Below, piece by piece: positions 11,361-48,711 of a DNA stretch of 64,000 bases; the stretch's first letter is position 1, and every line of letters begins with the position of its first letter. The DNA lies in NCBI GenBank assembly GCA_905199855.1, contig CAJKHY010000003.1, positions 6,823-70,822 on the forward strand, given 5' to 3'. The position numbers were made by a program, and so were the translations under genes. This stretch comes from an uncultured Clostridium sp. (GTDB lineage: Bacteria; Bacillota_I; Bacilli_A; RF39; UBA660). The notes beneath the pieces were generated by a model. It was not told where the DNA came from. It searched no databases and saw only the letters and a list, made by a program, of their open reading frames with translations.

Positions 11361-13238
11361 TTATTTTTTTTGAATTTTTATTATAAATTGATATTCGTTA
11401 GGTAAATCTAATTCGTCTACATCAACAATGTAACCTGATGCTTCTAAGTTATCTATTAGTTGTCTACTCATATTTAAGGCATTCCTTAAATAGTATGGAG
11501 AATATTCTTGTTTTGCTTGTGGTTGTTCTTCAAACGAAGGTGCCCCCTCTGTATTAAATTCTGGCAAGAATGGTTCTTCAATTTTTGATGGTTGAATGTT
11601 TGGTTGTGTTTCAACTGGAGAGGATACAAAAGTTGGATTATTGTTTTGTAGCGAAGGTTGAGTTGATGCTGTGATGCTTTCTTGAGTTGCAACTGGTTGA
11701 ATATTATTTACTGTTTCTTCTTGGGGTACGAACTGAGGTGTTATATTGTTTGAAATATTCTCTGGAGTTTGTTCAATTTTTTGGTTAGGTTCTAAATTAA
11801 TGTTTGAAATTGTTGGTTCTATTTTTGGTGTTTGAACACTTGGAATGTCATTTGTAGTTGGAGTTTGAATTGTATTTAAGTTAGGTAATGGCATCGTATT
11901 TTCAATAGATGATGTAGGCATTGGGGTAATATTTGATGCCATGGTTTCTGGAGTTGGCATTTCCCAAGTATTTATTGGATTATTTAAGTTTAGTTCTTGG
12001 TAAGATTCTGTAGGAGTTGCAATATTAACTTCTGGATGTGGTGTTTCTTTAGCCCCTTGTATATTTATTTGTTCAGGTTGATTTTGAAAATTATTTGGTA
12101 CTGCAGGTTGTGGTGTTGGTTCTACTAGAGTTGAATTTAATTCCGGCATATTAAATATAGGGGTAGGATTTATAGTTTGTGATGTTACTTCAGGGGTTTG
12201 TTCATTATTTACAGTATCAGGCATGTTTATTCTTTCTATATTAATTGGTTGTGGAGTTTGTGGTTGCATAGGTAAAGGCATTTCGACATTTTTTGCAGGT
12301 TCCATAAAGTTAGAGCCTGTGTTCATGTTTGTGCTTTCATCTTCTAGTGATGTGAAAAATTTGCCTGCGAATGAAAATTTTGGTTTTTCAACAGGTTGTT
12401 CTTGTTTTGGCATACTTTCATCTACTTTTAATAAATTGTTGATATCTGCAGTTTGCTCTTGATGATTTATATCTTGGGCTGATGCTTTAATTGCATCAAT
12501 GTTAATCATTTGTGTTTTATCCATTTTATCCTCCACTATTTCTGGTTCAACATCATCGAACGTATTTGATTTTTTATTTACTATATCAAGTCCTGATAGA
12601 ACTTTTTGCATATTAGGATTAATATCCATTTCCTCTACTTGTTCTTTGTTTTCTTTAATTATATCTTGGACTTGTTTAACTGTTAATCTTTCTTTTTTGA
12701 TTCTTTCTAGCATTGCATTTTCTTCCTGTTCATTTTCTAATTGAAGTAATGCTTTAGCATGTCCTTCGCTAATTTCATTATTTTGTAAAGCTTCTTGGAC
12801 ATTTTTACTTAATTTTAATAGTTTCATTTTGTTATTTATTTCTTTTTCTTCTTTAGACATTAAATTGGCTATTTCTTTAGTGTTACTATTTCCCGCTAGA
12901 TTTTGATAAGCTTTGGCTTCTTCAATTGGAGTAAGACTTTGTCTTTGAAGATTTTCAACGATGGCTAGTTCGGCACTTGCTTGGTCATTTATTTCCATAA
13001 TAATAGCTGGTACTTGGGTTAAACCTACTAAAGAGGCGGCTTTTAATCTTCGTTCACCTGCGATTACTTCATAACCATTAGGTATTTTTCTTAGAATAAG
13101 GGGTTCTATTATCCCATATTTTTTTATAGAGTTTGCCAATTCTTGTAGTGCTTTCTCATCAAATTTAATACGTGGTTGAAAACGGTTAGGTTTTATTTCA
13201 GTAATGTTTATTTGTTTTATTTCATTACTTTGTTGCAT
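11361..13238 (-). CDS. parB: ParB/Spo0J-family partition protein with a long low-complexity insertion
   Basis: ParB N-terminal domain with the IAGERRLKA motif and HTH. Then ~350 aa rich in P/T/N/Q, then a short C-terminal domain. Start set at MQQSNEIK with AAGGAGGG RBS; the ORF track extends to 13313. Confidence 0.75.
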   Translation of the reverse strand: MQQSNEIKQINITEIKPNRFQPRIKFDEKALQELANSIKKYGIIEPLILRKIPNGYEVIAGERRLKAASLVGLTQVPAIIMEINDQASAELAIVENLQRQSLTPIEEAKAYQNLAGNSNTKEIANLMSKEEKEINNKMKLLKLSKNVQEALQNNEISEGHAKALLQLENEQEENAMLERIKKERLTVKQVQDIIKENKEQVEEMDINPNMQKVLSGLDIVNKKSNTFDDVEPEIVEDKMDKTQMINIDAIKASAQDINHQEQTADINNLLKVDESMPKQEQPVEKPKFSFAGKFFTSLEDESTNMNTGSNFMEPAKNVEMPLPMQPQTPQPINIERINMPDTVNNEQTPEVTSQTINPTPIFNMPELNSTLVEPTPQPAVPNNFQNQPEQINIQGAKETPHPEVNIATPTESYQELNLNNPINTWEMPTPETMASNITPMPTSSIENTMPLPNLNTIQTPTTNDIPSVQTPKIEPTISNINLEPNQKIEQTPENISNNITPQFVPQEETVNNIQPVATQESITASTQPSLQNNNPTFVSSPVETQPNIQPSKIEEPFLPEFNTEGAPSFEEQPQAKQEYSPYYLRNALNMSRQLIDNLEASGYIVDVDELDLPNEYQFIIKIQKK

Positions 13239-13371
13239 AAAAAATCCCTCCTTATTCTTTTTTCTTACCCTTATGATATAATAATACACTAAGAAAAGGA
13301 AAAATTCAATCATTTTTTGTCGAAATAATATAAAAAAAATTAGAATTTTATGTTAATCTAACTTTTTTTAT

Positions 13372-14073
13372 TTATAGTGGATTTTTTTTTATTTGACTAT
13401 AGTTTCTAGGATATATATTTTTAGTTGGTTCTAATTTAATTATGTCTAAGAGGGTTCTCTCACTTTCTTCAATAGGTAGTTTAAATTTTTCTATTTTTAT
13501 TATTTTTGATTTCAATTTACTTAATGATGTTTCTATATTATTCAATTCTTTATCAATATTAGATTTCATAGGAATGAAGTGGCCATTTACTTTTAGTAAG
13601 GGAATAGAGTATTCTATAAGTTCTTTTAAATTGGCTACTGCTCTTGATGTTACTATATCATAGGTTTCTCTCACTTTTTTACCATAATCTTCAGCTCTTT
13701 CATTTATAATGGTAATATCTTTTAATTCTAAGGTGTCAATTACTAGTTTTAAGAAGTTACATCTTTTGTTTAGTGGTTCTATTAAAGTTACTTTTAAATT
13801 AGGGAATACTATCTTTAAAACAATTCCTGGGAATCCTGCACCTGTTCCTATATCACATAAGGTTTGATTGTCTAATTTTATTATTTTATTTAAGGTTAAT
13901 GAATCATAGAAATGTTTTAGGTATACTAGATTGTATTCGGTAATACCAGTTAAATTAATTTTTTGATTTTCTGTAATAAGAAGGTTATAGTACATATCTA
14001 ATTGGTTTATTTGGTTTTCTTTTATGTTTATGTCTATTTTTTTTAAGTAATTAATAAATTGTTCTTTATTCAT
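13372..14073 (-). CDS. rsmG: 16S rRNA (guanine527-N7)-methyltransferase RsmG/GidB
   Basis: DIGTGAGFPGI SAM motif; overlaps mnmG. Confidence 0.85.
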   Translation of the reverse strand: MNKEQFINYLKKIDINIKENQINQLDMYYNLLITENQKINLTGITEYNLVYLKHFYDSLTLNKIIKLDNQTLCDIGTGAGFPGIVLKIVFPNLKVTLIEPLNKRCNFLKLVIDTLELKDITIINERAEDYGKKVRETYDIVTSRAVANLKELIEYSIPLLKVNGHFIPMKSNIDKELNNIETSLSKLKSKIIKIEKFKLPIEESERTLLDIIKLEPTKNIYPRNYSQIKKNPL

Positions 14074-15889
14074 TATATTTTTTCTTTAAATAAACCATTA
14101 GAATAGATATGTCAGCAGGGTTTACGCCACTTATTCTTAGTGCCATGCCTATTGAAGTTGGGGCATATTTGATTAGTTTTTGTCTTGCTTCCGTGGCTAA
14201 ATTAGGTACTTTGTTGTAGTCTATGTCTGAGGGTATTTGTTTTTCTTCGTATTTAAGCATTTTTTCGGCTTCTTTCTCTGTTTTTCTTATATAACCTTCA
14301 TATTTTATTTGTATTTCTACTTGTTCTATAACATATTTATCATAATTTAGTTTGATATTATATTTATCTATCAAGTTATTTATATTTATCTCAGGATTTT
14401 TAAGGGCATTATAAATGGTATCACTTTTGTTTTCTAGTTTTATTTTAGTTTCTTTAAAGTAGTTTAGGAGTTTTTGAATATTCTGTTTTTTTTCTTTGAA
14501 TTTTTGATATGTTTCTTCATCAATTAGTCCTACTTGGTAACCATATTCTCTTAGTCTTAAGTCAGCATTGTCATGTCTTAATAGGAGGCGATATTCGGCA
14601 CGTGATGTTAGTAGGCGATATGGCTCGTTTGTTCCTTTGGTAATTAAATCATCAATTAATACTCCTATATAGGCTTCGTTTCTTTTTAATATTAATGGTT
14701 CTTTATTTTCTAGTTTTAGACTAGCGTTGATACCTGCGATTAACCCTTGACATGCGGCCTCTTCATAGCCTGATGTGCCATTTATTTGACCAGCGGTAAA
14801 TAAATTAGTTATAACTTTGGTTTCAAGGCTTTGTTTTAGTTGGGTAGGGTAGATGGCATCATACTCTATGGCATATGCATATTTTAGTATTTTAGCATTT
14901 TCTAATCCTTCTAGGCTATGTACCATTTCTTCTTGGACAGAGGTAGGCATACTCGTAGAAAAACCTTGAATGTAGATGTCATCATAGTAAAGGCTTTCAG
15001 GTTCTAAGAATAGTTGATGTCTTTCTTTGTCTTTGAATTTTACTAATTTATCTTCTATTGATGGGCAATATCTTGGTCCTACGGCATCTTTAATATATCC
15101 TCCGTACATGGCTGATTTGTCTAAGTTAGATTGAATTATGGCATGGGTTTTTTCATTGGTATAAATAAGATGACATGGTATTTGGTTTTTGACATCGTAT
15201 TTAGGATTTCCATTTATTTCAAAGGTATATGGTTCTTGATCGCCATCTTCTACTTTAGTTTTGGTAAAGTCAATGGTTGATTTTTCGATCCTAGGAGGTG
15301 TTCCTGTTTTTAATCTTAGAATTTCAAAACCATATTTTTTTAAATTATCACTTAGATGGTTAGAAGGTTTTTCTCCATGTGGTCCTTCTCTTTTTCTGGT
15401 GCTTCCAATTAGAATATCAGCTTTTAAATAAGTCCCAGTTGTTAAAATAACAATAGTTGATGTTATTTTTGTTTTATCTTCTAAGATTACTCCTTTTACT
15501 TGTTTGTTTTCTATGATTAAGTCTTCAACGATTGCTTCTTTGATGGTTATGTTTTGGGTATTATTTAGTGTTTTTAGCATTTCTTTAGGATATATTATTT
15601 TATCTATTTGAGATCTTAGGCTTCTAACCGCTGGACCTTTGGATGAATTTAACATTTTCATTTGTAATATTGCTTTGTCAGCATTTTTACCCATTTCGCC
15701 CCCTAGAGCATCGATTTCTCTTACCACGATACCTTTGGCGGAACCGCCAATTGATGGGTTACATGGCATGGTGGCTATATTATCAATTCGTCCTGTTATT
15801 AATAGGGTTTTGTGTCCTTTTCTTGCTGAAGCTAAAGCGGCTTCACAACCAGCATGTCCTCCTCCTACTACGATTATTTCATATTCCAT
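14066..15889 (-). CDS. mnmG: tRNA uridine 5-carboxymethylaminomethyl modification enzyme MnmG/GidA
   Basis: 607 aa; FAD motif IVVGGGHAGCEAALASA; full-length GidA similarity. Confidence 0.9.
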   Translation of the reverse strand: MEYEIIVVGGGHAGCEAALASARKGHKTLLITGRIDNIATMPCNPSIGGSAKGIVVREIDALGGEMGKNADKAILQMKMLNSSKGPAVRSLRSQIDKIIYPKEMLKTLNNTQNITIKEAIVEDLIIENKQVKGVILEDKTKITSTIVILTTGTYLKADILIGSTRKREGPHGEKPSNHLSDNLKKYGFEILRLKTGTPPRIEKSTIDFTKTKVEDGDQEPYTFEINGNPKYDVKNQIPCHLIYTNEKTHAIIQSNLDKSAMYGGYIKDAVGPRYCPSIEDKLVKFKDKERHQLFLEPESLYYDDIYIQGFSTSMPTSVQEEMVHSLEGLENAKILKYAYAIEYDAIYPTQLKQSLETKVITNLFTAGQINGTSGYEEAACQGLIAGINASLKLENKEPLILKRNEAYIGVLIDDLITKGTNEPYRLLTSRAEYRLLLRHDNADLRLREYGYQVGLIDEETYQKFKEKKQNIQKLLNYFKETKIKLENKSDTIYNALKNPEININNLIDKYNIKLNYDKYVIEQVEIQIKYEGYIRKTEKEAEKMLKYEEKQIPSDIDYNKVPNLATEARQKLIKYAPTSIGMALRISGVNPADISILMVYLKKKYNE

Positions 15890-15958
15890 TGGTGCACCTC
15901 CTTAAAATTTCTTATATATTATATACTATTTTAAGAAGTTTTTCAATGAAATTATATG

Positions 15959-16852
15959 CTATGTTTCTATTATTCTTTTTACTCTTTCTATTGATACTTT
16001 GTAATTACGATATTCGATGTTGGTTGTACCTATTGTTTCAAAATTAGTTATTATTTTACTATAATAAGTGTAAATTAAGACAATAGCACTTATATCTATT
16101 AGATTTTGCTTGGTTAAGGTTATAGCATAGAAGATAATACCATATCTACTTAAATCAATGATAAATAATACTAGATAAATAATACCTTGCGACATGACGT
16201 TAAATTTGTAATTACTTTCTAGGTATTTTGTCGTGGTAATATTATTTATTTCACTGATGGCGTTTATTTCTTTGTTACGTATTTGTTCTTGCATTTCTAA
16301 ATCTTGGATTATTTTTTCGTCTAAAAGTTTTTTTTTGTTTTTGTTATATTCTTGTAGTTCTTTACCAGCATATATTTGAAATACTAACATTAAAACAATT
16401 ATGATAAAGGCAAAAATAAATATTTTATAATTTACTAAATAAAATGAAATTAAAATAACAATAAATTCTACTAATTGTAGAAGTCTTGTTACAAGATTAC
16501 CTAGGAATGTACATATGATGTCGGTATCATTATAAGCGATGTTGGCAAACTTTCCCGAATTTATTTCAGTTATTTTTTTATTTTTAAATTTTTTACTTAT
16601 TGTTAAAAATAACCGGCTATAGTAGTTATACCATGTTTTTTGGTTTATGTAGCACCAAAAGTAGTATAATGAAGAGATTATAAAGCAGATTATTATTAGG
16701 TAATACGCTTTTTCATAATTAACATTTGTAATGTATTTGACGACTTTACCCCAGTAAATAGGGATGAGTAGAGAAGTTACACACATCATGATGGAAGTTA
16801 ATATTTTAAGTATTAGTGGTTTTTTATTTTGTTTAATTATTTGTTTTATCAT
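15959..16852 (-). CDS. ABC exporter transmembrane domain (ABC_membrane-like), no nucleotide-binding domain; possible gene remnant
   Basis: 297 aa with 5-6 TM helices and a type-I exporter TMD pattern (…SGKFANIAYNDTDIICTFLGNLV…AGKELQEYNKNKKKLLDEKIIQDLEMQEQ…). The ORF stops where an NBD would begin. Confidence 0.5.
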   Translation of the reverse strand: MIKQIIKQNKKPLILKILTSIMMCVTSLLIPIYWGKVVKYITNVNYEKAYYLIIICFIISSLYYFWCYINQKTWYNYYSRLFLTISKKFKNKKITEINSGKFANIAYNDTDIICTFLGNLVTRLLQLVEFIVILISFYLVNYKIFIFAFIIIVLMLVFQIYAGKELQEYNKNKKKLLDEKIIQDLEMQEQIRNKEINAISEINNITTTKYLESNYKFNVMSQGIIYLVLFIIDLSRYGIIFYAITLTKQNLIDISAIVLIYTYYSKIITNFETIGTTNIEYRNYKVSIERVKRIIET

Positions 16853-16944
16853 TTTACCTCCTTATATTATTAGTTTGGCATTTTTTGTTATTTTTATATA
16901 TATTAATTTAAATTAATGTTATAATAATTTATGAAGGTGAAGAT

Positions 16945-17820
16945 ATGAGGTTTGAAAAAGAAATAAGAATTGCAAAAGAAATTATGGAAAATTTTATTAA
17001 TAAATTAGGTCTTGATGGAAAGAATTTTTGCAGAATTATGAAATTTCCTGTGGTTATATATAATAATGTTATTTTTGATGGTGATGGAAGGTATGTGTCA
17101 ATAAATAATAAATATTTAAATAAGATAATTAATTCGTTTTCTTTTAGTGAAGAGGAAAAGACGAACATTTTAGAAAATGGACTTATTGAGATAGATAAAA
17201 AATATGAAAATAATCATAATTCTATGTTTTATGTAACTTTAGTTCATGAAATTTTACATGCTAATAGGGATTTGCTTTTATATGATTATTTTAACAATGT
17301 TGGGGGTAGTGAATTTTCTAATGAATATGCTTATGTTTATAAAGATGGGAGATTTTTTAAGAATACTAGTAATTTGTCTTTTGATTATGGAGATGCTAGT
17401 CAAAATATATTGAATGGTAATATTGATAGTTCTAAGATAGAGAATGCTCAGGATGAATTAGATATGGATGAAAAGGTAGCGGAAAAAATGGACAAACAAG
17501 TTGAGATTGATGAGGCTTTGATTGATACTATGTCTATTGTAGCAAATAAGATTTATAATGAGAAAAAAAAGGGGAATAAGTTGGGTATTTTTGAGTGTTT
17601 AGAATTACTTAGAGACTGTATAGATGTTAATAATGTTAAGGTTATTTGTGATATTATTTTAAGACATAGAGATTATGGTTTATTTTATTGGGTGTTAGAT
17701 CCTATTGGCTATACATATGGTGATATTCATTATGATTTTTTTAGTAACTATACTAAAAATGATGGTGATTTAGTTAGTTGTTTTGATTCTTATCAGGATT
17801 TTGGCAAAAGAAAAAACTAG
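16945..17820 (+). CDS. hypothetical protein with an HExxH zinc-metallopeptidase-like motif
   Basis: 291 aa; HEILHANRD motif around residue 100; no TM; extended -10 promoter TGTTATAAT upstream. Confidence 0.4.
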   Translation: MRFEKEIRIAKEIMENFINKLGLDGKNFCRIMKFPVVIYNNVIFDGDGRYVSINNKYLNKIINSFSFSEEEKTNILENGLIEIDKKYENNHNSMFYVTLVHEILHANRDLLLYDYFNNVGGSEFSNEYAYVYKDGRFFKNTSNLSFDYGDASQNILNGNIDSSKIENAQDELDMDEKVAEKMDKQVEIDEALIDTMSIVANKIYNEKKKGNKLGIFECLELLRDCIDVNNVKVICDIILRHRDYGLFYWVLDPIGYTYGDIHYDFFSNYTKNDGDLVSCFDSYQDFGKRKN

Positions 17821-17825
17821 TTTTG

Positions 17826-18902
17826 CTAGTTTTTTCTTTTTTTTAATCTTTTGTTCATGTTATGAAGGGCTACACCGTTCATGATTAAATTACCATGTTT
17901 GTATTCTTGATATTGAAGTCGGTTTGCCTCTTCGATGTCTTCTCCACCAAAGTATAGTATTTTAATACTTTCTTTTAGTTTTTTTAGTTTTTCTAGTCTT
18001 TCTGTTGGTGTACTTCTTACTTCGTCTTTTTTATAGTTATCACATTTTGATACTATAAATTTTTTCATTTCTCCATTTTCTTTTATTTCTTGGATTCCTT
18101 CAGTTATAAAGTCGTAAGAATCTATTCTTGATTTAATACGGTCTTTTATTTTAGGACAAAGTGTTGCTGTAGCATTTTGACAACTAAAGCATAGATGGTT
18201 TTGACTTTTAGTGTAAATTATGTCTATTAAATCTGCAAATATGTTTTGTGATAATTCATAAATTCCATTATTAATGTTATTCGTTTTGGTGTATGAAGCA
18301 AATATTTCATTTATTGGTGTATTTATTTTTTTATTTTCTAATTCTCTTATTGTTCTTTCTGGTAATCTTAATAATAAGTTAGTATAATATGTCATTATCA
18401 TTTCTTTTATCATGATAGATATTGTGGCTTTTTTATTATTTATTAAACTTTTTTCTATATATTTGACATTATTGTTAACTTTGTTTTTTGTTATCTTTTT
18501 TGTAGATGTGTAAAGACTTAATGGAATAAGGTGGTTCTGTTTTAAGATGTCATTTACTATTGTAGATGTGTAAAAACTTAATGGAATAAGGTAGTACTGT
18601 TTTAAGATGTCATTTACTATTTGTAATAGTTCTTCTTCTGTTTTTGCTTCATTTATTTTTTTTATGATGTTACTTGTTTCATTTAATGAACAATGGGCGT
18701 TTAATTCGTTTGTTATTGATTTTGCTTTTCTTATGATTTCACTTTTTTCCTTGCTAGGTAATTTTATGATGTCTTCTTGGCTTAAGATGTTTTCAAAACA
18801 TTTATCTTTTTTAGTAAAATATGGTATGAAATTACTTCTTTTTATTTTTTCTACCTCAGCAATTTGTCCGTTTTCTTTTTTAATTATAATACTTTTTCCC
18901 AT
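17826..18902 (-). CDS. hypothetical protein (ORF-B) with an internal 20-aa tandem duplication and a Cys-rich C-terminal half
   Basis: 358 aa from MGKSIIIKKENGQIAEV. The start is chosen because a perfect sigma-A promoter and GGGGG RBS lie immediately upstream; the track's longer ORF reaches 19037. Contains HLCFSCQNATATLCP…SKCDNY. Confidence 0.5.
   Translation of the reverse strand: MGKSIIIKKENGQIAEVEKIKRSNFIPYFTKKDKCFENILSQEDIIKLPSKEKSEIIRKAKSITNELNAHCSLNETSNIIKKINEAKTEEELLQIVNDILKQYYLIPLSFYTSTIVNDILKQNHLIPLSLYTSTKKITKNKVNNNVKYIEKSLINNKKATISIMIKEMIMTYYTNLLLRLPERTIRELENKKINTPINEIFASYTKTNNINNGIYELSQNIFADLIDIIYTKSQNHLCFSCQNATATLCPKIKDRIKSRIDSYDFITEGIQEIKENGEMKKFIVSKCDNYKKDEVRSTPTERLEKLKKLKESIKILYFGGEDIEEANRLQYQEYKHGNLIMNGVALHNMNKRLKKRKN
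18501..18620. repeat. 2 x 60-bp direct tandem repeat (~95% identity) inside ORF-B, in frame
   Basis: tgtagatgtgtaaagacttaatggaataaggtggttctgttttaagatgtcatttactat repeated; encodes IVNDILKQYYLIPLSFYTST / IVNDILKQNHLIPLSLYTST. Confidence 0.9.
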
Positions 18903-18970
18903 ATAAAATTCCCCCTTTTTTTGAAATATGACTCGTATTATAGCACGTTTGTTTTTGTTTGTCAAGTTTT
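18903..18970 (-). promoter_or_regulatory. Consensus sigma-A promoter plus leader of ORF-B: TTGACA-17-TGcTATAAT, RBS AAGGGGGAA
   Basis: Reverse complement reads CTTGACAAACAAAAACAAACGTGCTATAATACGAGTCATATTTCAAAAAAAGGGGGAATTTTATATG. About 80% identity over 56 nt to the ORF-A promoter/leader. Confidence 0.65.
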
Positions 18971-19021
18971 TTATTCGAGTGGGAGGAGTACTAAAAACAA
19001 TAACAAAAGAAAAAAGAAGAA

Positions 19022-20371
19022 TTATTTTCCTAGACAAAATCTTTTAAACATTTCGTCTAGCATTTCTTCTTTATATGTAGCACCGATTATTTCGCCTAGT
19101 ATGTTCCATGCTTCTTTGATATCTATTTCTAATAGATATGGTTCTATTCCTTGACGTGTTTTATTAATTACTTCTTTTAGAATGTCATGGGCTTTTTTTA
19201 GTAATCCGATGCTTCTTGCACTTGTTAGATAATTCATATCTGTTGTTTCTATTTTATCAATGTTAAATAAGTATTTTATTTTGTTTTTTAAATCATCTAT
19301 TCCTATATTATATTCTGCACTTATTTTAACTATGTTTTCATGGTTAATTTCTTCAATATTGGTAGGTAAGTCTATTTTATTTAAAACAATTATACTTGTT
19401 TTGTTTTTAATTAATTCTAATAAATATTTATCTTCTTCTGTTAATTGTTCATTACTGTTTAAGATAAGTATTATTAGGTTACTATTTTCTATAACTTCTT
19501 TGCTTTTGTTTACTCCAATTTGTTCTACAATATCATTTGTCTCTCTTATTCCTGCAGTATCAATTAGGTGGATAGGAATGTTATCTATTTGGATTGTTCC
19601 TTCGACAATATCTCTTGTTGTTCCTGCAATATTGGTTACTATTGCTTTGTTTTCTTCTAAGAGTGTATTTAGTAAACTGCTTTTTCCAACATTTGGCCTA
19701 CCTATTAGACATACTTTTATTCCTTCGGTTATTATTTTCCCATTTTCGCTTTGAGTTATTGTATCTTCTAGGCTTTTGTTTACTTCTTTTAGAATTGGTA
19801 ATATTTTTTCATTGTTAATAACTTCGATATCATCGTATTCTGGGTAATCAATGTTTACTTCAATATTAGAGATTACTTGAATTAGTTTATCTCTTAGAGA
19901 TATTATCTTATTTGAAACATTACCACTTAATTGGTTGATTGATAGTTTTCTGGATGTTTCTGTTTTGGCTTCGATTAGATTCATGATACCATCGGCCTCG
20001 ATTAGGTCAATTCTTCCATTTAAAAAGGCTCTTTTGGTGAATTCTCCTGGTTCTGCTAGACGAATACCTTTTTGAATAAGTAATTCTAATACTTTATTAG
20101 TTGTGGATATACCTCCATGGCAATTTATTTCGACAATGTCTTCTTTGGTATAGGTTTTAGGACTTTTCATGATGCTTATTAGGACTTCATCTATTATTTC
20201 TTCTTTGTTTACGATATGTCCATAGTGAATGGTATGGGTGTTTACTTTGGTTAAATCTTTTCCTTTAAATATTTCATTTACTAATGGTATTGCATCTTTG
20301 CCACTTACTCTTATGATGGATATAGCTCCAACTCCTAAGGCCGTTGATATACCTGCAATTGTATCATTCAT
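19022..20371 (-). CDS. mnmE: tRNA modification GTPase MnmE/TrmE
   Basis: 449 aa; G-domain GRPNVGKSSLLN, DTAGIRE; C-terminal CLGK motif. Confidence 0.9.
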   Translation of the reverse strand: MNDTIAGISTALGVGAISIIRVSGKDAIPLVNEIFKGKDLTKVNTHTIHYGHIVNKEEIIDEVLISIMKSPKTYTKEDIVEINCHGGISTTNKVLELLIQKGIRLAEPGEFTKRAFLNGRIDLIEADGIMNLIEAKTETSRKLSINQLSGNVSNKIISLRDKLIQVISNIEVNIDYPEYDDIEVINNEKILPILKEVNKSLEDTITQSENGKIITEGIKVCLIGRPNVGKSSLLNTLLEENKAIVTNIAGTTRDIVEGTIQIDNIPIHLIDTAGIRETNDIVEQIGVNKSKEVIENSNLIILILNSNEQLTEEDKYLLELIKNKTSIIVLNKIDLPTNIEEINHENIVKISAEYNIGIDDLKNKIKYLFNIDKIETTDMNYLTSARSIGLLKKAHDILKEVINKTRQGIEPYLLEIDIKEAWNILGEIIGATYKEEMLDEMFKRFCLGK

Positions 20372-20435
20372 ATTGTCAGTCCTTTCTTTTTTTTCCTAGT
20401 AGTATACCATATTTTGTTTATTTAGAAAAGTATTT

Positions 20436-20855
20436 TTAGATTTCATAATATTTTCTTTTTTTTACTTTTGGTAACTCTTTTGATGGAGTGTAGTTATAGA
20501 TTAATGAGGCTGTCATAGTAACAAAACTTTCTTTATTATTTGAACAGATCTTCTTCTCAAGATTTATTCCTTTTTCCTGGCATAGGTCTTGGAAGTATTC
20601 TTCGTTGATGTTTTCAAATATTGGATTAGAATAATTATATTTTTTGCTATTTTTTTCACAATATGTATATTTGGTTTCAAATTTTGTTATTTTTTGTTCT
20701 TCTTCTAAATTTTCTATTATTTTATTTATTAAATCTTCTTTGATGTAGTTAAAAGCTTCTTCGGTTTCATTTTTTTTTGTTATTTTTATTATGTGATTTT
20801 CACATAGTTGGTCTAAATATTTTTTAAATTCTTTGTTTATTTCTATTTTACTCAT
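20436..20855 (-). CDS. hypothetical protein, lineage-specific
   Basis: 139 aa, K/E-rich, 4 Cys; directly downstream (10-bp gap) of the 437-aa ORF. Confidence 0.4.
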   Translation of the reverse strand: MSKIEINKEFKKYLDQLCENHIIKITKKNETEEAFNYIKEDLINKIIENLEEEQKITKFETKYTYCEKNSKKYNYSNPIFENINEEYFQDLCQEKGINLEKKICSNNKESFVTMTASLIYNYTPSKELPKVKKRKYYEI

Positions 20856-20865
20856 TTTTTTACTC

Positions 20866-22179
20866 CTATTTTGTTTTATTTTTTAGTTTACTAGATATGA
20901 GTTGTTGAACTTGTTCATCTATTTTTCTTTGTTCTTCTTCATTTATGTTATTTAATATGGTATCTTTATTATATTGTTTGATTCTTTGTTTTATTGATTC
21001 ATTGTCTTGTTTGGTTGAAAATGAAGATTTTTTTTCTAATATCATTATGATACCATAGGTGTTATTTTCTAGGTACTCACAGATTATTCTTGCTTGTGAA
21101 GAGTTAGAATTAGATCTTATTCTTTTTATTTTACGATATGGGATGTCTTTTTGATATGTACTCTTTAATGGGATATTATTTTCTTTTATTTTGATTAGAA
21201 GAGAATAGATATCTTTTAATGTTTTTTGTTCTTCTATATTATCTATATCTTTTAAGATGTTATTAGATAGATAAACTATTTTATTTTTATGATTTTGGTA
21301 ATCAAAGTAGGTATCTGTTGGTTCTTCTTCAATACTTTCTTCTTTTTCTTTTAGATGTTTAAATAGTTCATATAGGATATCAATATTTTCTTTTACTATT
21401 TGTTTATCTTCTTCGTCTAATTCATTTAATAGAGATGTTTCTTCTTCGATTTCTTCTTTTAAGATGCTACTTAATATAACAATAGTATTTGTTGTATTGG
21501 AATTGTTTTCATATATGTTATTGTTTATTAAAACATCAAGTTTTTGAATTTTTTCTTCAATTGTTGGTAATTTATCAATTTCGGTAATAAAGACTTGTTT
21601 TGCTATGTCAAATGTTAGGGAGAAGCCTTCTTCGATTAGGTCTTTTTTACTCGGTGTATCTTTTAAAATTTCTTCTCTGTTAATTTGTTTAATAGTATTT
21701 TCTTCTATATATTTAGATATTTGCTCATATTCTTCTTTGGTTAGGGGAATATTTTTAATAATGTTATTTAATTTGTTTGGTTCTAGATTATAGAGTTTGG
21801 TTTTCTGTAAAATGTTTTTTATGTTTTCTAGGATGTCTATGTCTTTGATAATTAGAGTTTCTTTAGTTTGGAGGGAAAGTTTTTTTAAATATTCTAAAAG
21901 GACATTTACTTCAATAAGATAGTCTTCTATTCCGTTTGTTCCAATTTGTTTATATGCTATATAGATTTCTTGAGCATTTTTAATGGATTTGTTGTTTTGA
22001 AAATCCGGTATGAGTTTTGTAAATATAGAATTTAATAAGTTTGTATTGTTTTTATCTAATATGCTAAGTGGTTCATGTGTATATATTTCTAAGAACTTTT
22101 CGATATTTTCTTTTAGTTCTTGTTTTTGAGTTTCTTTTATAATTGTTTCTTCTATTTTGTTAATAAGAAAATTTTCCAT
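20866..22179 (-). CDS. hypothetical protein, lineage-specific
   Basis: 437 aa, acidic/K-rich, no recognisable motif; own promoter TTGTCA-17-TATAAT and RBS upstream. Confidence 0.45.
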   Translation of the reverse strand: MENFLINKIEETIIKETQKQELKENIEKFLEIYTHEPLSILDKNNTNLLNSIFTKLIPDFQNNKSIKNAQEIYIAYKQIGTNGIEDYLIEVNVLLEYLKKLSLQTKETLIIKDIDILENIKNILQKTKLYNLEPNKLNNIIKNIPLTKEEYEQISKYIEENTIKQINREEILKDTPSKKDLIEEGFSLTFDIAKQVFITEIDKLPTIEEKIQKLDVLINNNIYENNSNTTNTIVILSSILKEEIEEETSLLNELDEEDKQIVKENIDILYELFKHLKEKEESIEEEPTDTYFDYQNHKNKIVYLSNNILKDIDNIEEQKTLKDIYSLLIKIKENNIPLKSTYQKDIPYRKIKRIRSNSNSSQARIICEYLENNTYGIIMILEKKSSFSTKQDNESIKQRIKQYNKDTILNNINEEEQRKIDEQVQQLISSKLKNKTK

Positions 22180-24283: not shown

Positions 24284-24599
24284 TATTACACCTCCAAAGT
24301 TCTTTTTTTAATATAAAATGCTATTTTATTATATAGGTGTTTTATTTTAAAGTCAATAAAAATTTTTATTTTGTCTATTTTTTTGTTATGATACAAGTTA
24401 TTTATAGTTGATATTGACATTAGCAAATAATGTCTTTTTTTATTAGAATGTTGTATCCTAAATAAGGTATGTTTCTATTTTTTAACTAAATTTTTCTTGT
24501 GATAACGGCGTAGCAAAGGCATAAGAAAATTAAAATTGGTGTTTTAAAAATTATAGTTTTGGTGTATAATGGTTTTAAGAATAGAATTTGGGTGATTAT

Positions 24600-26366
24600 A
24601 TGTTTAAGAGGATACTTGCTATTAGTAAGAATTATGCTTTTGTAGAGATAGATAATTTAATGAGTGAAGATTTGCTTAATTATTATGTTATTTTTGTCGA
24701 TGATGATAAGAAGTTTCTTGGCGAGGTTAATGAGGTAGATGGTAATAGGGTTAAGATTACTTTTTTAGGCGAATTTATTAATGATAAGTTTGTTAGTGGT
24801 ATTATTAGAAAACCTAGTTTGACTTCTAATATTAGAATTATTAACAATATTGAGCTCGATGAGTTAATGGGGACTGTTAATGATAAGAATATGGTTCTTG
24901 GTTTATCTCCTTTATATAATGATCATCCAATTAATATAGATATTAATAGTATGTTTAGTAACCATAGTTCAATATTTGGTAACACAGGAAGTGGTAAAAC
25001 ATATGGGGTTGCTAGAATTTATCAGTCTTTGTTTGATAGAAATGATATTATTCCTTTTAATGCTAATATTTTTATATTTAATTCAACTAATGAGTATCAT
25101 AATTCTTTTTCTTCTATTAATAAGTTTAATATTAATTATAATTATAAGATGTATACGACTAATACTAATAATAAGGATAGTTTAATTATTAAGTTGCCTC
25201 TTTGGCATTTAACTGTTGATGATTATGCTAATTTACTTGATGTTTACGAATATTCACAGATTAATATTATAGAGAAGATGTTATCCTATGTATGTGCTTT
25301 TGCTAAGAATGATGAGTATTCAATAAGATATAAGAATCATTTGATAGCTTCTGCAATTATATCAGTTATGTATACGAATCAAACGGCTTTTAGGATAAGG
25401 GATCAAATATTTAATATTCTTAGTACTTGCAGTACAAAAGATTTAAATTTGGATTATGAAATTCCTGGTGTTGGATATACTAGAACTTTTAGAAAATGTT
25501 TTGATATTGATAGTCAAGGAGAATTTGTTGAGCGATTACTTGTTTCTAAATATGTGGAACAGTTTGTTGATAATAATACGAAATGGAATGAAGATTATAC
25601 TCCCATTTATTATACTTTAGAGGATTTAGAGATAGCTTTAAACTTTACTTTGATTAGTGAAGGATTACTTTTAAATGAAAAATATTATGCGGAGGCGATT
25701 GCTTTAAAAGTAAAGTTGCATTCTATTATTAATAGTTCTTATCATAAATTTTTTGATTATAATAGATTTGTTAGTTTGACTGAGTTTATTACTGATATCG
25801 TGGTTAATAAAGAAAATAAAAGATGTCAAATAATTAATTTTGTCTTAGAAGATGTGGATGATAGATTTGCTAAGGCTTTAACTAAGATTTATTCAAGATT
25901 ATTTTTTAAGTTTGCTAGAAGTTTGCCTCAGCGTGGGACATTTCCTATGCATATTTTATTGGAAGAAGCCCACAGATATGTGCAAAACGATGCAGATACT
26001 AGGACTTTAGGTTATAATATTTTTGAGAGAATTGCTAAGGAAGGTAGAAAATATGGGGTAATTTTAGATTTGGTTACTCAAAGGCCTACGGAATTATCCG
26101 AATCAGTTATTTCTCAGTGTAGTAACTTTTTGATTTTTAAGATTAATCACCCAACTGATTTAGATTATATTGGTAAAATGGTTCCTAATATTACGGATGA
26201 TATAATTGAAAAGCAAAAAAGTTTGCAGTCTGGGATATGCGTAGCGTTTGGCAAGATGATGAAGTTACCTATGATAGTTAAGATGAAACTTCCTAATCCT
26301 CCTCCTAGCTCCGCGAATGCTGATGTATATGATAAATGGATGTTTAATTTAAAAGGTAGATATTAA
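24600..26366 (+). CDS. HerA/DUF87-family ATPase (HAS-barrel + RecA-like hexameric ATPase), standalone
   Basis: Walker A GNTGSGKTYG; Walker B/catalytic ILLEEAHRY; HerA-type C-terminal block GRKYGVILDLVTQRPTELSESVISQCSNFLIFKINHPTDLDYI; ~125-aa N-terminal barrel-like region. Confidence 0.7.
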   Translation: MFKRILAISKNYAFVEIDNLMSEDLLNYYVIFVDDDKKFLGEVNEVDGNRVKITFLGEFINDKFVSGIIRKPSLTSNIRIINNIELDELMGTVNDKNMVLGLSPLYNDHPINIDINSMFSNHSSIFGNTGSGKTYGVARIYQSLFDRNDIIPFNANIFIFNSTNEYHNSFSSINKFNINYNYKMYTTNTNNKDSLIIKLPLWHLTVDDYANLLDVYEYSQINIIEKMLSYVCAFAKNDEYSIRYKNHLIASAIISVMYTNQTAFRIRDQIFNILSTCSTKDLNLDYEIPGVGYTRTFRKCFDIDSQGEFVERLLVSKYVEQFVDNNTKWNEDYTPIYYTLEDLEIALNFTLISEGLLLNEKYYAEAIALKVKLHSIINSSYHKFFDYNRFVSLTEFITDIVVNKENKRCQIINFVLEDVDDRFAKALTKIYSRLFFKFARSLPQRGTFPMHILLEEAHRYVQNDADTRTLGYNIFERIAKEGRKYGVILDLVTQRPTELSESVISQCSNFLIFKINHPTDLDYIGKMVPNITDDIIEKQKSLQSGICVAFGKMMKLPMIVKMKLPNPPPSSANADVYDKWMFNLKGRY

Positions 26367-47964: not shown

Positions 47965-48711
47965 TTAGTTTTCTTTTTTTGTGTTTTGATATGTTTTAAT
48001 AATTGTTTTTTCTAAATAATTTAAGAATTCTTTGTCGGCAACAATATCACTTATATTACTTTCATTAAATACAACATGATATTTGTTTTGGCGCTCTATA
48101 ATTTTAATATTTTCAATAGTTTTATTATTGCTTAAGATAATATTACAAATCGCTTTACAATTTCTATTTTGGTTATTGTTTAAAAAGAATTTTATTTTTT
48201 CTATTTGTACTTTGTTTAGATTTTCTTTGTTTTTGTATCTTTGTTGACAATTTTCTATTATTTCTAAGGCTTCTTCAGTATCGTGATAATTTAATACTTC
48301 AACGGGAATGTTTTGGAGTGTTTTGTAGTTTGAAAAGAAGTCTTTTATTTCTTCTAGGATAAATTTTGGCATATCATTTAGGGTGTTAATTTCATTATAT
48401 CTAGGATCAACATTTACTACAGAAATTATTTTGTAATCTTCATGTCCATTGTCAATAACTTCTAGATAGCCAATAACTCTGGCTTCAACAATACATCCAG
48501 GGAAAGTTGGAGCAGAAGATACTAATAAGATGTCTAATGGATCTCCGTCTAAGGCTAAGGTGTTTTCAATGTATCCATATTCTACAGGATAATTCATGGC
48601 AGAGTAGAGTACTCTATCTAATCTAATTTTGCCTGTTGTTTCATCAATTTCAAATTTATTTTTAGTATTAAGTGGTATTTCAATTATTGCATCAACGATA
48701 TTATTTTTCAT
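47965..48711 (-). CDS. ppa: family I inorganic pyrophosphatase with a ~75-aa C-terminal extension
   Basis: First ~170 aa match soluble PPase (…DGDPLDILLVS…); the K/N-rich tail has no counterpart in canonical Ppa. Confidence 0.7.
   Translation of the reverse strand: MKNNIVDAIIEIPLNTKNKFEIDETTGKIRLDRVLYSAMNYPVEYGYIENTLALDGDPLDILLVSSAPTFPGCIVEARVIGYLEVIDNGHEDYKIISVVNVDPRYNEINTLNDMPKFILEEIKDFFSNYKTLQNIPVEVLNYHDTEEALEIIENCQQRYKNKENLNKVQIEKIKFFLNNNQNRNCKAICNIILSNNKTIENIKIIERQNKYHVVFNESNISDIVADKEFLNYLEKTIIKTYQNTKKEN

Follow-up and report, generated by a model that had tools for sequence, protein, structure and literature searches.

An insertion between mnmE and mnmG in an uncultured gut Bacilli species holds an ABC exporter-like membrane protein beside a recurrently adjacent pair of HExxH and four-cysteine proteins

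ImmA-ImmR, IrrE(PprI)-DdrO and CapP-CapH each combine an M78-type zincin with a DNA-binding partner, and it is with these systems that a pair of genes described here is likened by analogy, membership not being claimed; a third gene at the same locus has its described counterparts among the type I ATP-binding cassette (ABC) exporters. The locus lies in a window of 64,000 nucleotides from an uncultured Clostridium sp. (contig CAJKHY010000003.1, positions 6,823 to 70,822), an origin-proximal region of a low-GC bacterium (about 27% GC). In this window mnmE and mnmG are separated by a 3.1-kb block, at positions 15890-19021, that holds three intact genes. These encode a membrane protein of 297 amino acids (aa) resembling the transmembrane domain (TMD) of ABC exporters, hereafter ABC-TMD; a 291-aa protein with an HExxH motif, the HExxH protein; and a 358-aa protein with four invariant cysteines, the Cys4 protein. 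The gene order along the minus strand is rnpA, yidC, jag, two unannotated genes, mnmE, the three genes of the block, mnmG, rsmG and a ParB/Noc-like gene. The block and its borders are as follows.

14066-15889, minus strand: mnmG (GidA), downstream border of the block; open reading frame (ORF) of 607 aa, with GIDA Pfam matches on the orthologue
15959-16852, minus strand: ABC-TMD (membrane protein) gene; 297-aa ORF
16945-17820, plus strand: HExxH protein gene; 291-aa ORF
17826-18902, minus strand: Cys4 protein gene; 358-aa ORF
19022-20371, minus strand: mnmE (tRNA modification GTPase), upstream border of the block; 449-aa ORF, with TrmE_N, MnmE_helical and MMR_HSR1 Pfam matches on the conspecific orthologue

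The spacers between these genes measure 69, 92, 5 and 119 bp, and all other ORFs of at least 50 aa within the block are antisense overlaps of the three genes. The block is best explained, in a judgment that stands about evenly balanced, as two independent units and not as one module: an orphan ABC-TMD, and a protease-partner pair formed by the HExxH and Cys4 proteins. The first unit would be a stand-alone ABC transmembrane protein moved here from elsewhere and not demonstrably linked to the HExxH and Cys4 genes. The second would be a two-gene cytoplasmic module composed of an acidic, gluzincin-like HExxH metallopeptidase and a basic Cys4 protein. Synonymous divergence (dS) within the species is more than 10-fold higher for the ABC-TMD gene (0.42) than for the HExxH and Cys4 genes (0.03), and the ABC-TMD gene therefore has a different recent history from its two neighbours. 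Conspecific strains are 91-94% identical in nucleotides to the window over the TMD gene (15500-16900) and 97-99% over the HExxH and Cys4 genes (16900-18900), a mosaic that suggests recombination, or a recent sweep of the HExxH/Cys4 pair within the species. Moreover, in the other genomes sampled the TMD-only gene never neighbours the HExxH/Cys4 pair.

The Cys4 gene is a recurrent neighbour of the HExxH gene. Clustering of the HExxH proteins at 60% identity gave 15 lineages, and a Cys4 homologue adjoins the HExxH gene in 8 of them. It lies downstream and convergent in five lineages (L087, L088, L116, the window, and L111, where one gene lies between), and directly upstream and co-directional in L120, L123/L125/L127 and L129, with a gap to the called HExxH start of 37 bp in L120 and 64 bp in L129. 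A locus reached from the Cys4 side (L130) ends with an apparent convergent HExxH C terminus. HExxH homologues of 29-38% identity still show the adjacency, which occurs away from synteny and in two orientations. Apart from this, the genes around the HExxH loci are unrelated ones with housekeeping roles, for example polA, eno, pgk/gap and rpsL. No neighbour family other than Cys4 recurs where synteny is not shared, and a search for a third recurrent family at these loci found none. This recurrence outside shared synteny supports a functional link. The two proteins also have complementary charges, with a median isoelectric point (pI) of 4.75 for the HExxH family and 8.7 for the Cys4 family. No HExxH-Cys4 fusion occurs among 149 Cys4 representatives, and literature searches retrieved no description of the pair.

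The insertion itself is clear from comparison with relatives. An earlier reading of this DNA from its letters and ORFs (the sequence-only reading) had proposed that three genes split the normally adjacent mnmG and mnmE, and both the coordinates and the norm are confirmed: among 73 reference loci with both genes, the gap has a median of 48 bp and is at most 120 bp in 59. The mnmE of the window is 47-75% identical to the mnmE of 80 reference genomes. All conspecific metagenome contigs examined (L001-L006, L105 and L106, from human gut) hold the same three genes between mnmE and mnmG, with a mosaic nucleotide identity of 89-100%, and a contig of a sister lineage (L104, ~87% nucleotide identity) has both the Cys4 and the HExxH gene, together with the opening bases of the TMD gene. 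Among other genomes, the nearest in a one-genome-per-species collection is a “Bacilli bacterium” metagenome-assembled genome (MAG), L007, with an mnmE 75% and an mnmG 81% identical to those of the window; it lacks the block and has a gap of 17 bp, and the block is likewise absent from about 30 related MAGs. This comparison of the junction among relatives, which had been proposed as a check, shows the block to be a lineage-specific insertion at the mnmE-mnmG junction; the lineage is an uncultured gut Bacilli species of low GC. No larger insertion was seen at this junction. Seven Bacilli MAGs (L013, L019, L022, L025, L028, L041 and L051) have gaps of 380-525 bp, mostly with one small ORF, which differs between lineages: 167 aa in L013, 144 aa in L019, about 122 aa in L041/L051 and 52-76 aa in L022/L028. 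As different single ORFs occupy the gap in related MAGs, new genes have landed at this junction repeatedly within the clade. At the borders of the block there are no flanking direct or inverted repeats, no tRNA and no Rfam RNA family, and none of its three genes is a recombinase according to Pfam, NCBIfam and PHROGs.

A junction that recurrently gains unrelated small ORFs would also suit a reading, judged unlikely, in which the three genes have no functional relationship: they would be unrelated lineage-specific genes at a permissive site, and the HExxH-Cys4 adjacency elsewhere would reflect shared ancestry. The independent history of the ABC-TMD gene fits this reading, as do the 7 of the 15 HExxH lineages without an adjacent Cys4 gene. 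However, a linkage that persists at 29-38% identity, away from synteny and in either orientation is hard to explain without selection for it.

The HExxH protein, read earlier as a 291-aa, divergently transcribed protein with the motif HEILHANRD, is present as such and is of zincin type. The motif occupies residues 101-109, and 27 homologues were found, down to 32% identity. In an alignment of 15 homologues (34-88% identity), H101, E102, H105, R108, D189/E190, H241/D243 and H262/D264 are invariant, D189/E190 within QxxIDEAL and H262/D264 within GDIHYDFF. The structure model has a predicted thermolysin-like fold. In it H101, E102 and H105 sit on a helix spanning residues 93-117, and the invariant D189/E190 on the next long helix is a plausible candidate for the third metal ligand. 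In neither the HExxH nor the Cys4 protein is any hydrophobic stretch of sufficient length to form a membrane helix or serve as a signal peptide; both are therefore most likely cytoplasmic. Neither has a significant match in Pfam, NCBIfam, PHROGs or PADLOC, and Pfam searches of 15 HExxH homologues returned only stray single-member matches. These features point to a cytoplasmic gluzincin-like metallopeptidase, which would bind metal and have peptidase activity. Against the sister lineage the ratio of nonsynonymous to synonymous divergence (dN/dS) is 0.31 for the HExxH gene and 0.40 for the Cys4 gene, values that accessory genes typically show and that point to moderate constraint. One HExxH lineage has a small conserved gene (115-145 aa) that follows the HExxH gene co-directionally (L111:6020-6454, L112:6035-6379 and L117:6035-6379), in L111 with Cys4 on its other side; this gene may be a third component particular to that lineage.

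An HExxH motif also occurs in Fe(II)/alpha-ketoglutarate-dependent oxygenases of the ChlH/BpmH/PflC type, and the HExxH protein could in principle be such an enzyme, modifying a protein or peptide and possibly the Cys4 protein. This role is known for clusters of peptides that are made on the ribosome and modified after translation (RiPPs) (PMC12636437). The HExxH protein has neither a match to the profile of these hydroxylases (IPR026337) nor the context of a RiPP cluster: no RiPP precursor, radical-SAM or MNIO gene lies nearby. It has no NCBIfam match of any kind, and NCBIfam includes a model for this oxygenase family, TIGR04267. Since both family match and neighbouring genes are lacking, the oxygenase role is highly improbable.

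The Cys4 protein is encoded from an ATG preceded by a GGGGGA ribosome-binding site, a longer ORF of 403 aa with a TTG start being a mechanical extension. The sequence-only reading had described its gene as having a perfect consensus promoter and a fresh 60-bp in-frame duplication, at the following positions.

18937-18965, minus strand: predicted consensus sigma-70-type promoter of the Cys4 gene, TTGACA-17-TGnTATAAT; sole 12/12 match in 15500-20600
18500-18619: 60-bp in-frame tandem duplication (20 aa) in the helical insert of the Cys4 protein; TRF period 60, 2.0 copies, 95% identical; direct-repeat family D1

The predicted promoter stands, being the only such match in the scanned range (15500-20600), and its hexamers and spacing are kept in the sister lineage L104 despite a differing upstream sequence. 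The duplication is likewise present but is not private to this genome: it is polymorphic, with the 358-aa allele common (cluster P0028, 158 member sequences; L106 and L107) and other strains encoding 338 aa. The description of the protein as Cys-rich does not fit, as 358 residues include six cysteines, four of them invariant (C238, C241, C249 and C287). Its layout comprises an N-terminal beta-hairpin, a helical insert, the Cys4 domain, which presumably binds zinc, C-terminal helices and a lysine/arginine (K/R)-rich tail. The pI of the window protein is 9.4, and it has no transmembrane segment. The AlphaFold2 model has a pLDDT of 91.7, which drops to 57-69 over residues 110-140, the duplicated stretch, because of the 60-bp duplication.

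A word-indexed search retrieved only conspecific homologues of Cys4, whereas a full HMMER scan retrieved 290 cluster representatives, including 160 with E≤1e-10. The family has a long form (~320-345 aa) and a short form (~140-170 aa) without the central helical insert. Common to all members are the beta-hairpin (IIKKENG), the four-Cys domain (HLCW-x-C-x7-C ... FxVxxCxNY), a YFDAxxxEEA helix and the K/R-rich tail. The window protein has no match in Pfam, NCBIfam or the PDB; Pfam and NCBIfam searches of 60 homologues gave only stray single-member matches, and profile searches of PDB sequences with alignments of the HExxH and Cys4 families (A1, A2 and A4) gave no meaningful match. The PDB matches at E<0.01 are designed repeat proteins only, reached through a short YFDAxxxEEA-like motif. 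A Logan contig (ERR11473717_41324; L101:1-1400) carries a 396-aa ORF that joins the N-terminal half of Cys4 to the C-terminal three quarters of the TMD protein, with the HExxH gene deleted. The join falls in a T-rich microhomology of ~16-32 nt in a k-mer assembly, so that this apparent natural deletion is possibly a chimera and was not relied on.

The third gene of the block had been taken for the transmembrane half of an ABC exporter, and three alignments agree. ABC-TMD matches positions 1-268 of the 274 in the PF00664 (ABC_membrane) profile, with E=3.6e-5 and a score of 24 bits. This lies below the 28-bit gathering cutoff, but most homologues carry a precomputed PF00664 match. ABC-TMD also aligns to positions 147-449 of 673 of the NCBIfam peptidase-containing exporter model NF045998, that is, after the peptidase domain, and to positions 152-459 of 726 of the ABC transporter PHROG 2392 (E=2e-16). 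The protein has five to six hydrophobic segments and stops at the TMD/ATPase junction, where the ATPase domain would begin, 69 bp before mnmG. No nucleotide-binding domain is present in the protein and no ABC_tran gene adjoins it, here or in L094-L103; a C39 peptidase domain is also absent, with no peptidase family among the Pfam matches at E≤1. Related uncultured Bacilli hold 159 homologues which, among the matches listed, are nearly all 296-313 aa long, many with PF00664. Because the TMD-only form is conserved across these 159 homologues, the length of 297 aa is not a truncation. The gene is under strong purifying selection, with a dN/dS of 0.044 among conspecifics and 0.026 in comparison with a relative of 76% identity. 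ABC-TMD is thus an orphan, conserved, ATPase-less membrane domain of a type I exporter, and such a protein may have taken on an ATP-independent function. Its homologues occur after a phosphotransacylase (PTAC) gene, between ileS and ruvA, and next to a serpin gene, in each case without an adjoining ATPase gene. In two loci of more distant relatives (L094:6442-7933 and L097:6442-7903) the TMD-only gene lies directly 3' of a PTAC gene of ~185 aa (PF06130, PduL type) with LemA upstream, surroundings that may be the ancestral context of the family.

These properties bear on the proposal of the sequence-only reading as a whole, namely that the three genes resemble a degraded or novel module for peptide processing, export or immunity. 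Spelled out for a bacteriocin or RiPP, the HExxH protein would be the processing peptidase and the ABC protein the exporter or immunity factor. Three observations lean toward it: the best alignments of ABC-TMD are with the TMD of bacteriocin-type ABC exporters that contain a peptidase, its gene divergently adjoins the HExxH gene, and the HExxH homologue of one distant lineage (L122) has a full ABC exporter directly upstream. Such a module is nevertheless very unlikely and is already largely refuted. The locus has no ATPase domain, no C39 domain and no precursor ORF, and the four short spacers leave no room for the leader-peptide ORFs that had been suggested as a further target. The HExxH and Cys4 proteins lack a signal peptide and transmembrane segments, ABC-TMD is unlinked to them elsewhere, its TMD-only architecture is the conserved state, and no RiPP-type family is matched in Pfam or NCBIfam. 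Degradation does not apply either: all three reading frames are intact in the window, and ABC-TMD combines a dN/dS of 0.03-0.04 with the full family length of 296-313 aa. By its own terms the sequence-only reading would be refuted if relatives showed these as conserved core genes of known function, and this applies in part: the families are indeed conserved in relatives, but known functions do not come with them, and none of the three genes matches a named housekeeping family, in line with what had been noted.

For the pair taken alone, a selfish toxin-antitoxin or an abortive-infection/defence module has to be weighed, with the zincin as toxin and the basic zinc protein as antitoxin, or the reverse. 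A patchy distribution, a variable genomic location and occasional pseudogenisation would suit such a module, as would the two-gene architecture with short gaps in some lineages, the very strong (consensus) promoter on one partner and the opposite charges of the partners. On the other hand, PADLOC has no match for either protein, and tblastn searches of phages with the HExxH protein and the long and short Cys4 forms, and of plasmids with the short Cys4 form, found no match. The neighbours are housekeeping genes and not defence islands, and the convergent orientation in five lineages is atypical for toxin-antitoxin operons. In addition, each partner is broken or lost while the other is intact. 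In conspecific strains the HExxH gene carries nonsense mutations (L172 to TAA in L006 and E217 to TAG in L106) beside an intact Cys4 gene; conversely, L112/L117/L114 have an intact HExxH gene and a lost or truncated Cys4. That either partner can go missing independently speaks against classic addiction, unless other copies exist, and an addiction or defence module is regarded as improbable.

Several observations also weigh against the HExxH and Cys4 proteins forming a protease-partner pair. An adjacent Cys4 gene is missing from 7 of the 15 HExxH lineages, and many Cys4 members may lack an HExxH neighbour, the Cys4 side having been sampled only at L130. The convergent orientation of the pair in the window means that its genes are not co-transcribed there. 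The two nonsense alleles, together with a frameshift in L128, mean that the pair is dispensable, and the within-species dN/dS of the HExxH gene is 0.4-0.7, at very low divergence. Finally, the neighbour directly upstream of HExxH in L122 is a full-length ABC exporter, an association that is probably coincidental but could reflect a loose connection with ABC proteins.

Under the two-unit reading, the Cys4 protein would serve the peptidase as a dedicated partner, be it substrate, regulator or inhibitor. The K/R-rich tail hints at nucleic-acid binding, and cleavage or sequestration of the Cys4 protein might switch its activity, by analogy with ImmA-ImmR, IrrE-DdrO and CapP-CapH. A bolder form of this proposal, possible but tentative, is that the pair constitutes an undescribed two-component system confined to uncultured low-GC gut Bacilli, in which a new gluzincin family and a nucleic-acid-binding Cys4 protein of new fold would act as a proteolytic switch or a nucleic-acid-associated protease.

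The remaining features of the block are promoter-like and terminator-like sites.

15918-15946, minus strand: promoter-like TTGAAA-17-TATAAT in the 69-bp spacer before mnmG; 11/12 match, position read from sequence
16853-16944: divergent intergenic region of 92 bp between the ABC-TMD and HExxH genes, with promoter-like sites
17806-17840: terminator-like hairpin, bidirectional, where the HExxH and Cys4 genes converge; stem of 15-16 bp, loop of 3-5 nt, T-runs on both sides

The predicted site at 15918-15946 could give mnmG a promoter of its own, replacing the lost co-transcription with mnmE. The 92-bp divergent region contains a promoter-like TTGGCA-18-TATATT on the plus strand, and a putative promoter-like TGTTATAAT element was read directly from the sequence at about 16918-16926. 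As a class, promoter-like sites are not enriched, with 34 observed and 33.1 expected in shuffled sequence.

Other unusual genes lie elsewhere in the window. Between jag and mnmE, at 20436-22179 on the minus strand, a second unannotated pair encodes proteins of 139 and 437 aa; the 437-aa gene has a 46%-identical homologue in the same position in L007, where the 139-aa gene has none. The C terminus of the 437-aa protein shows a weak likeness to Gp49/HigB-like proteins (PF05973, E=0.0016). A gene for a 592-aa HerA/DUF87-type ATPase (24588-26366, plus strand) lies between the rpmH-rnpA operon and dnaA, is kept in conspecific contigs and is an unusual occupant of an oriC-proximal region. The ParB/Noc-like protein (11361-13313, minus strand; ParB_N and HTH_ParB) has the nucleoid occlusion protein as top NCBIfam match, below the cutoff, and carries a C-terminal extension of ~400 aa that is of low complexity and rich in Q, P, N and T. 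A 248-aa ORF at 47965-48711 on the minus strand fuses an inorganic pyrophosphatase domain to a SpoVG-like C-terminal domain.

The analysis defines two unannotated families, a gluzincin-like peptidase and the Cys4 family, the latter with its 290 cluster representatives, a high-confidence model and no match to a solved fold. Uncultured gut Bacilli commonly carry such proteins, and the reproducible genomic link between the two families yields a hypothesis that can be tested. A type I exporter membrane domain that is conserved and strongly constrained without an ATPase is unusual for this class of transporter. The origin-proximal mnmE-mnmG operon as a recurrent landing site is of use for the annotation of MAGs and for the study of operon remodelling near oriC. 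No current knowledge is overturned and a specialist would not be surprised; the value lies in annotation and hypothesis generation.

Compared with the type I ABC exporters (PF00664, NF045998 and PHROG 2392), ABC-TMD aligns over the whole TMD and differs in having neither a nucleotide-binding domain nor a C39 domain, and no ATPase gene adjoins its gene here or in relatives. The block as a whole has none of the features of a mobile element that were looked for (integrase or transposase, flanking repeats and tRNA target). The HExxH protein is only 8-12% identical to gluzincins such as the M1 aminopeptidase catalytic domain, thermolysin (M4), lugdulysin (M30) and the minigluzincins, and differs from them in being small, stand-alone, cytoplasmic and without a Pfam or MEROPS-type family match. 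Unlike in gluzincins, ~85 residues separate the HExxH motif from the candidate Glu, because of a low-confidence insert at residues 119-174. PF06114/M78 is matched neither by the window protein nor by any of 15 homologues, and the Cys4 protein has no match to HTH_3, a feature of XRE partners. In contrast to pairs of the ImmA-ImmR type, the partner here is thus a Cys4 protein and not an XRE helix-turn-helix protein, and the genes are often convergent and not co-transcribed. The SprT-like family PF10263 is matched by 1 of 15 HExxH homologues (E=2e-5) and not by the window protein. The difference from the zincins of the SprT/Spartan/Wss1 type lies in the zinc-binding sub-domain, which here would be carried by a separate protein, Cys4.

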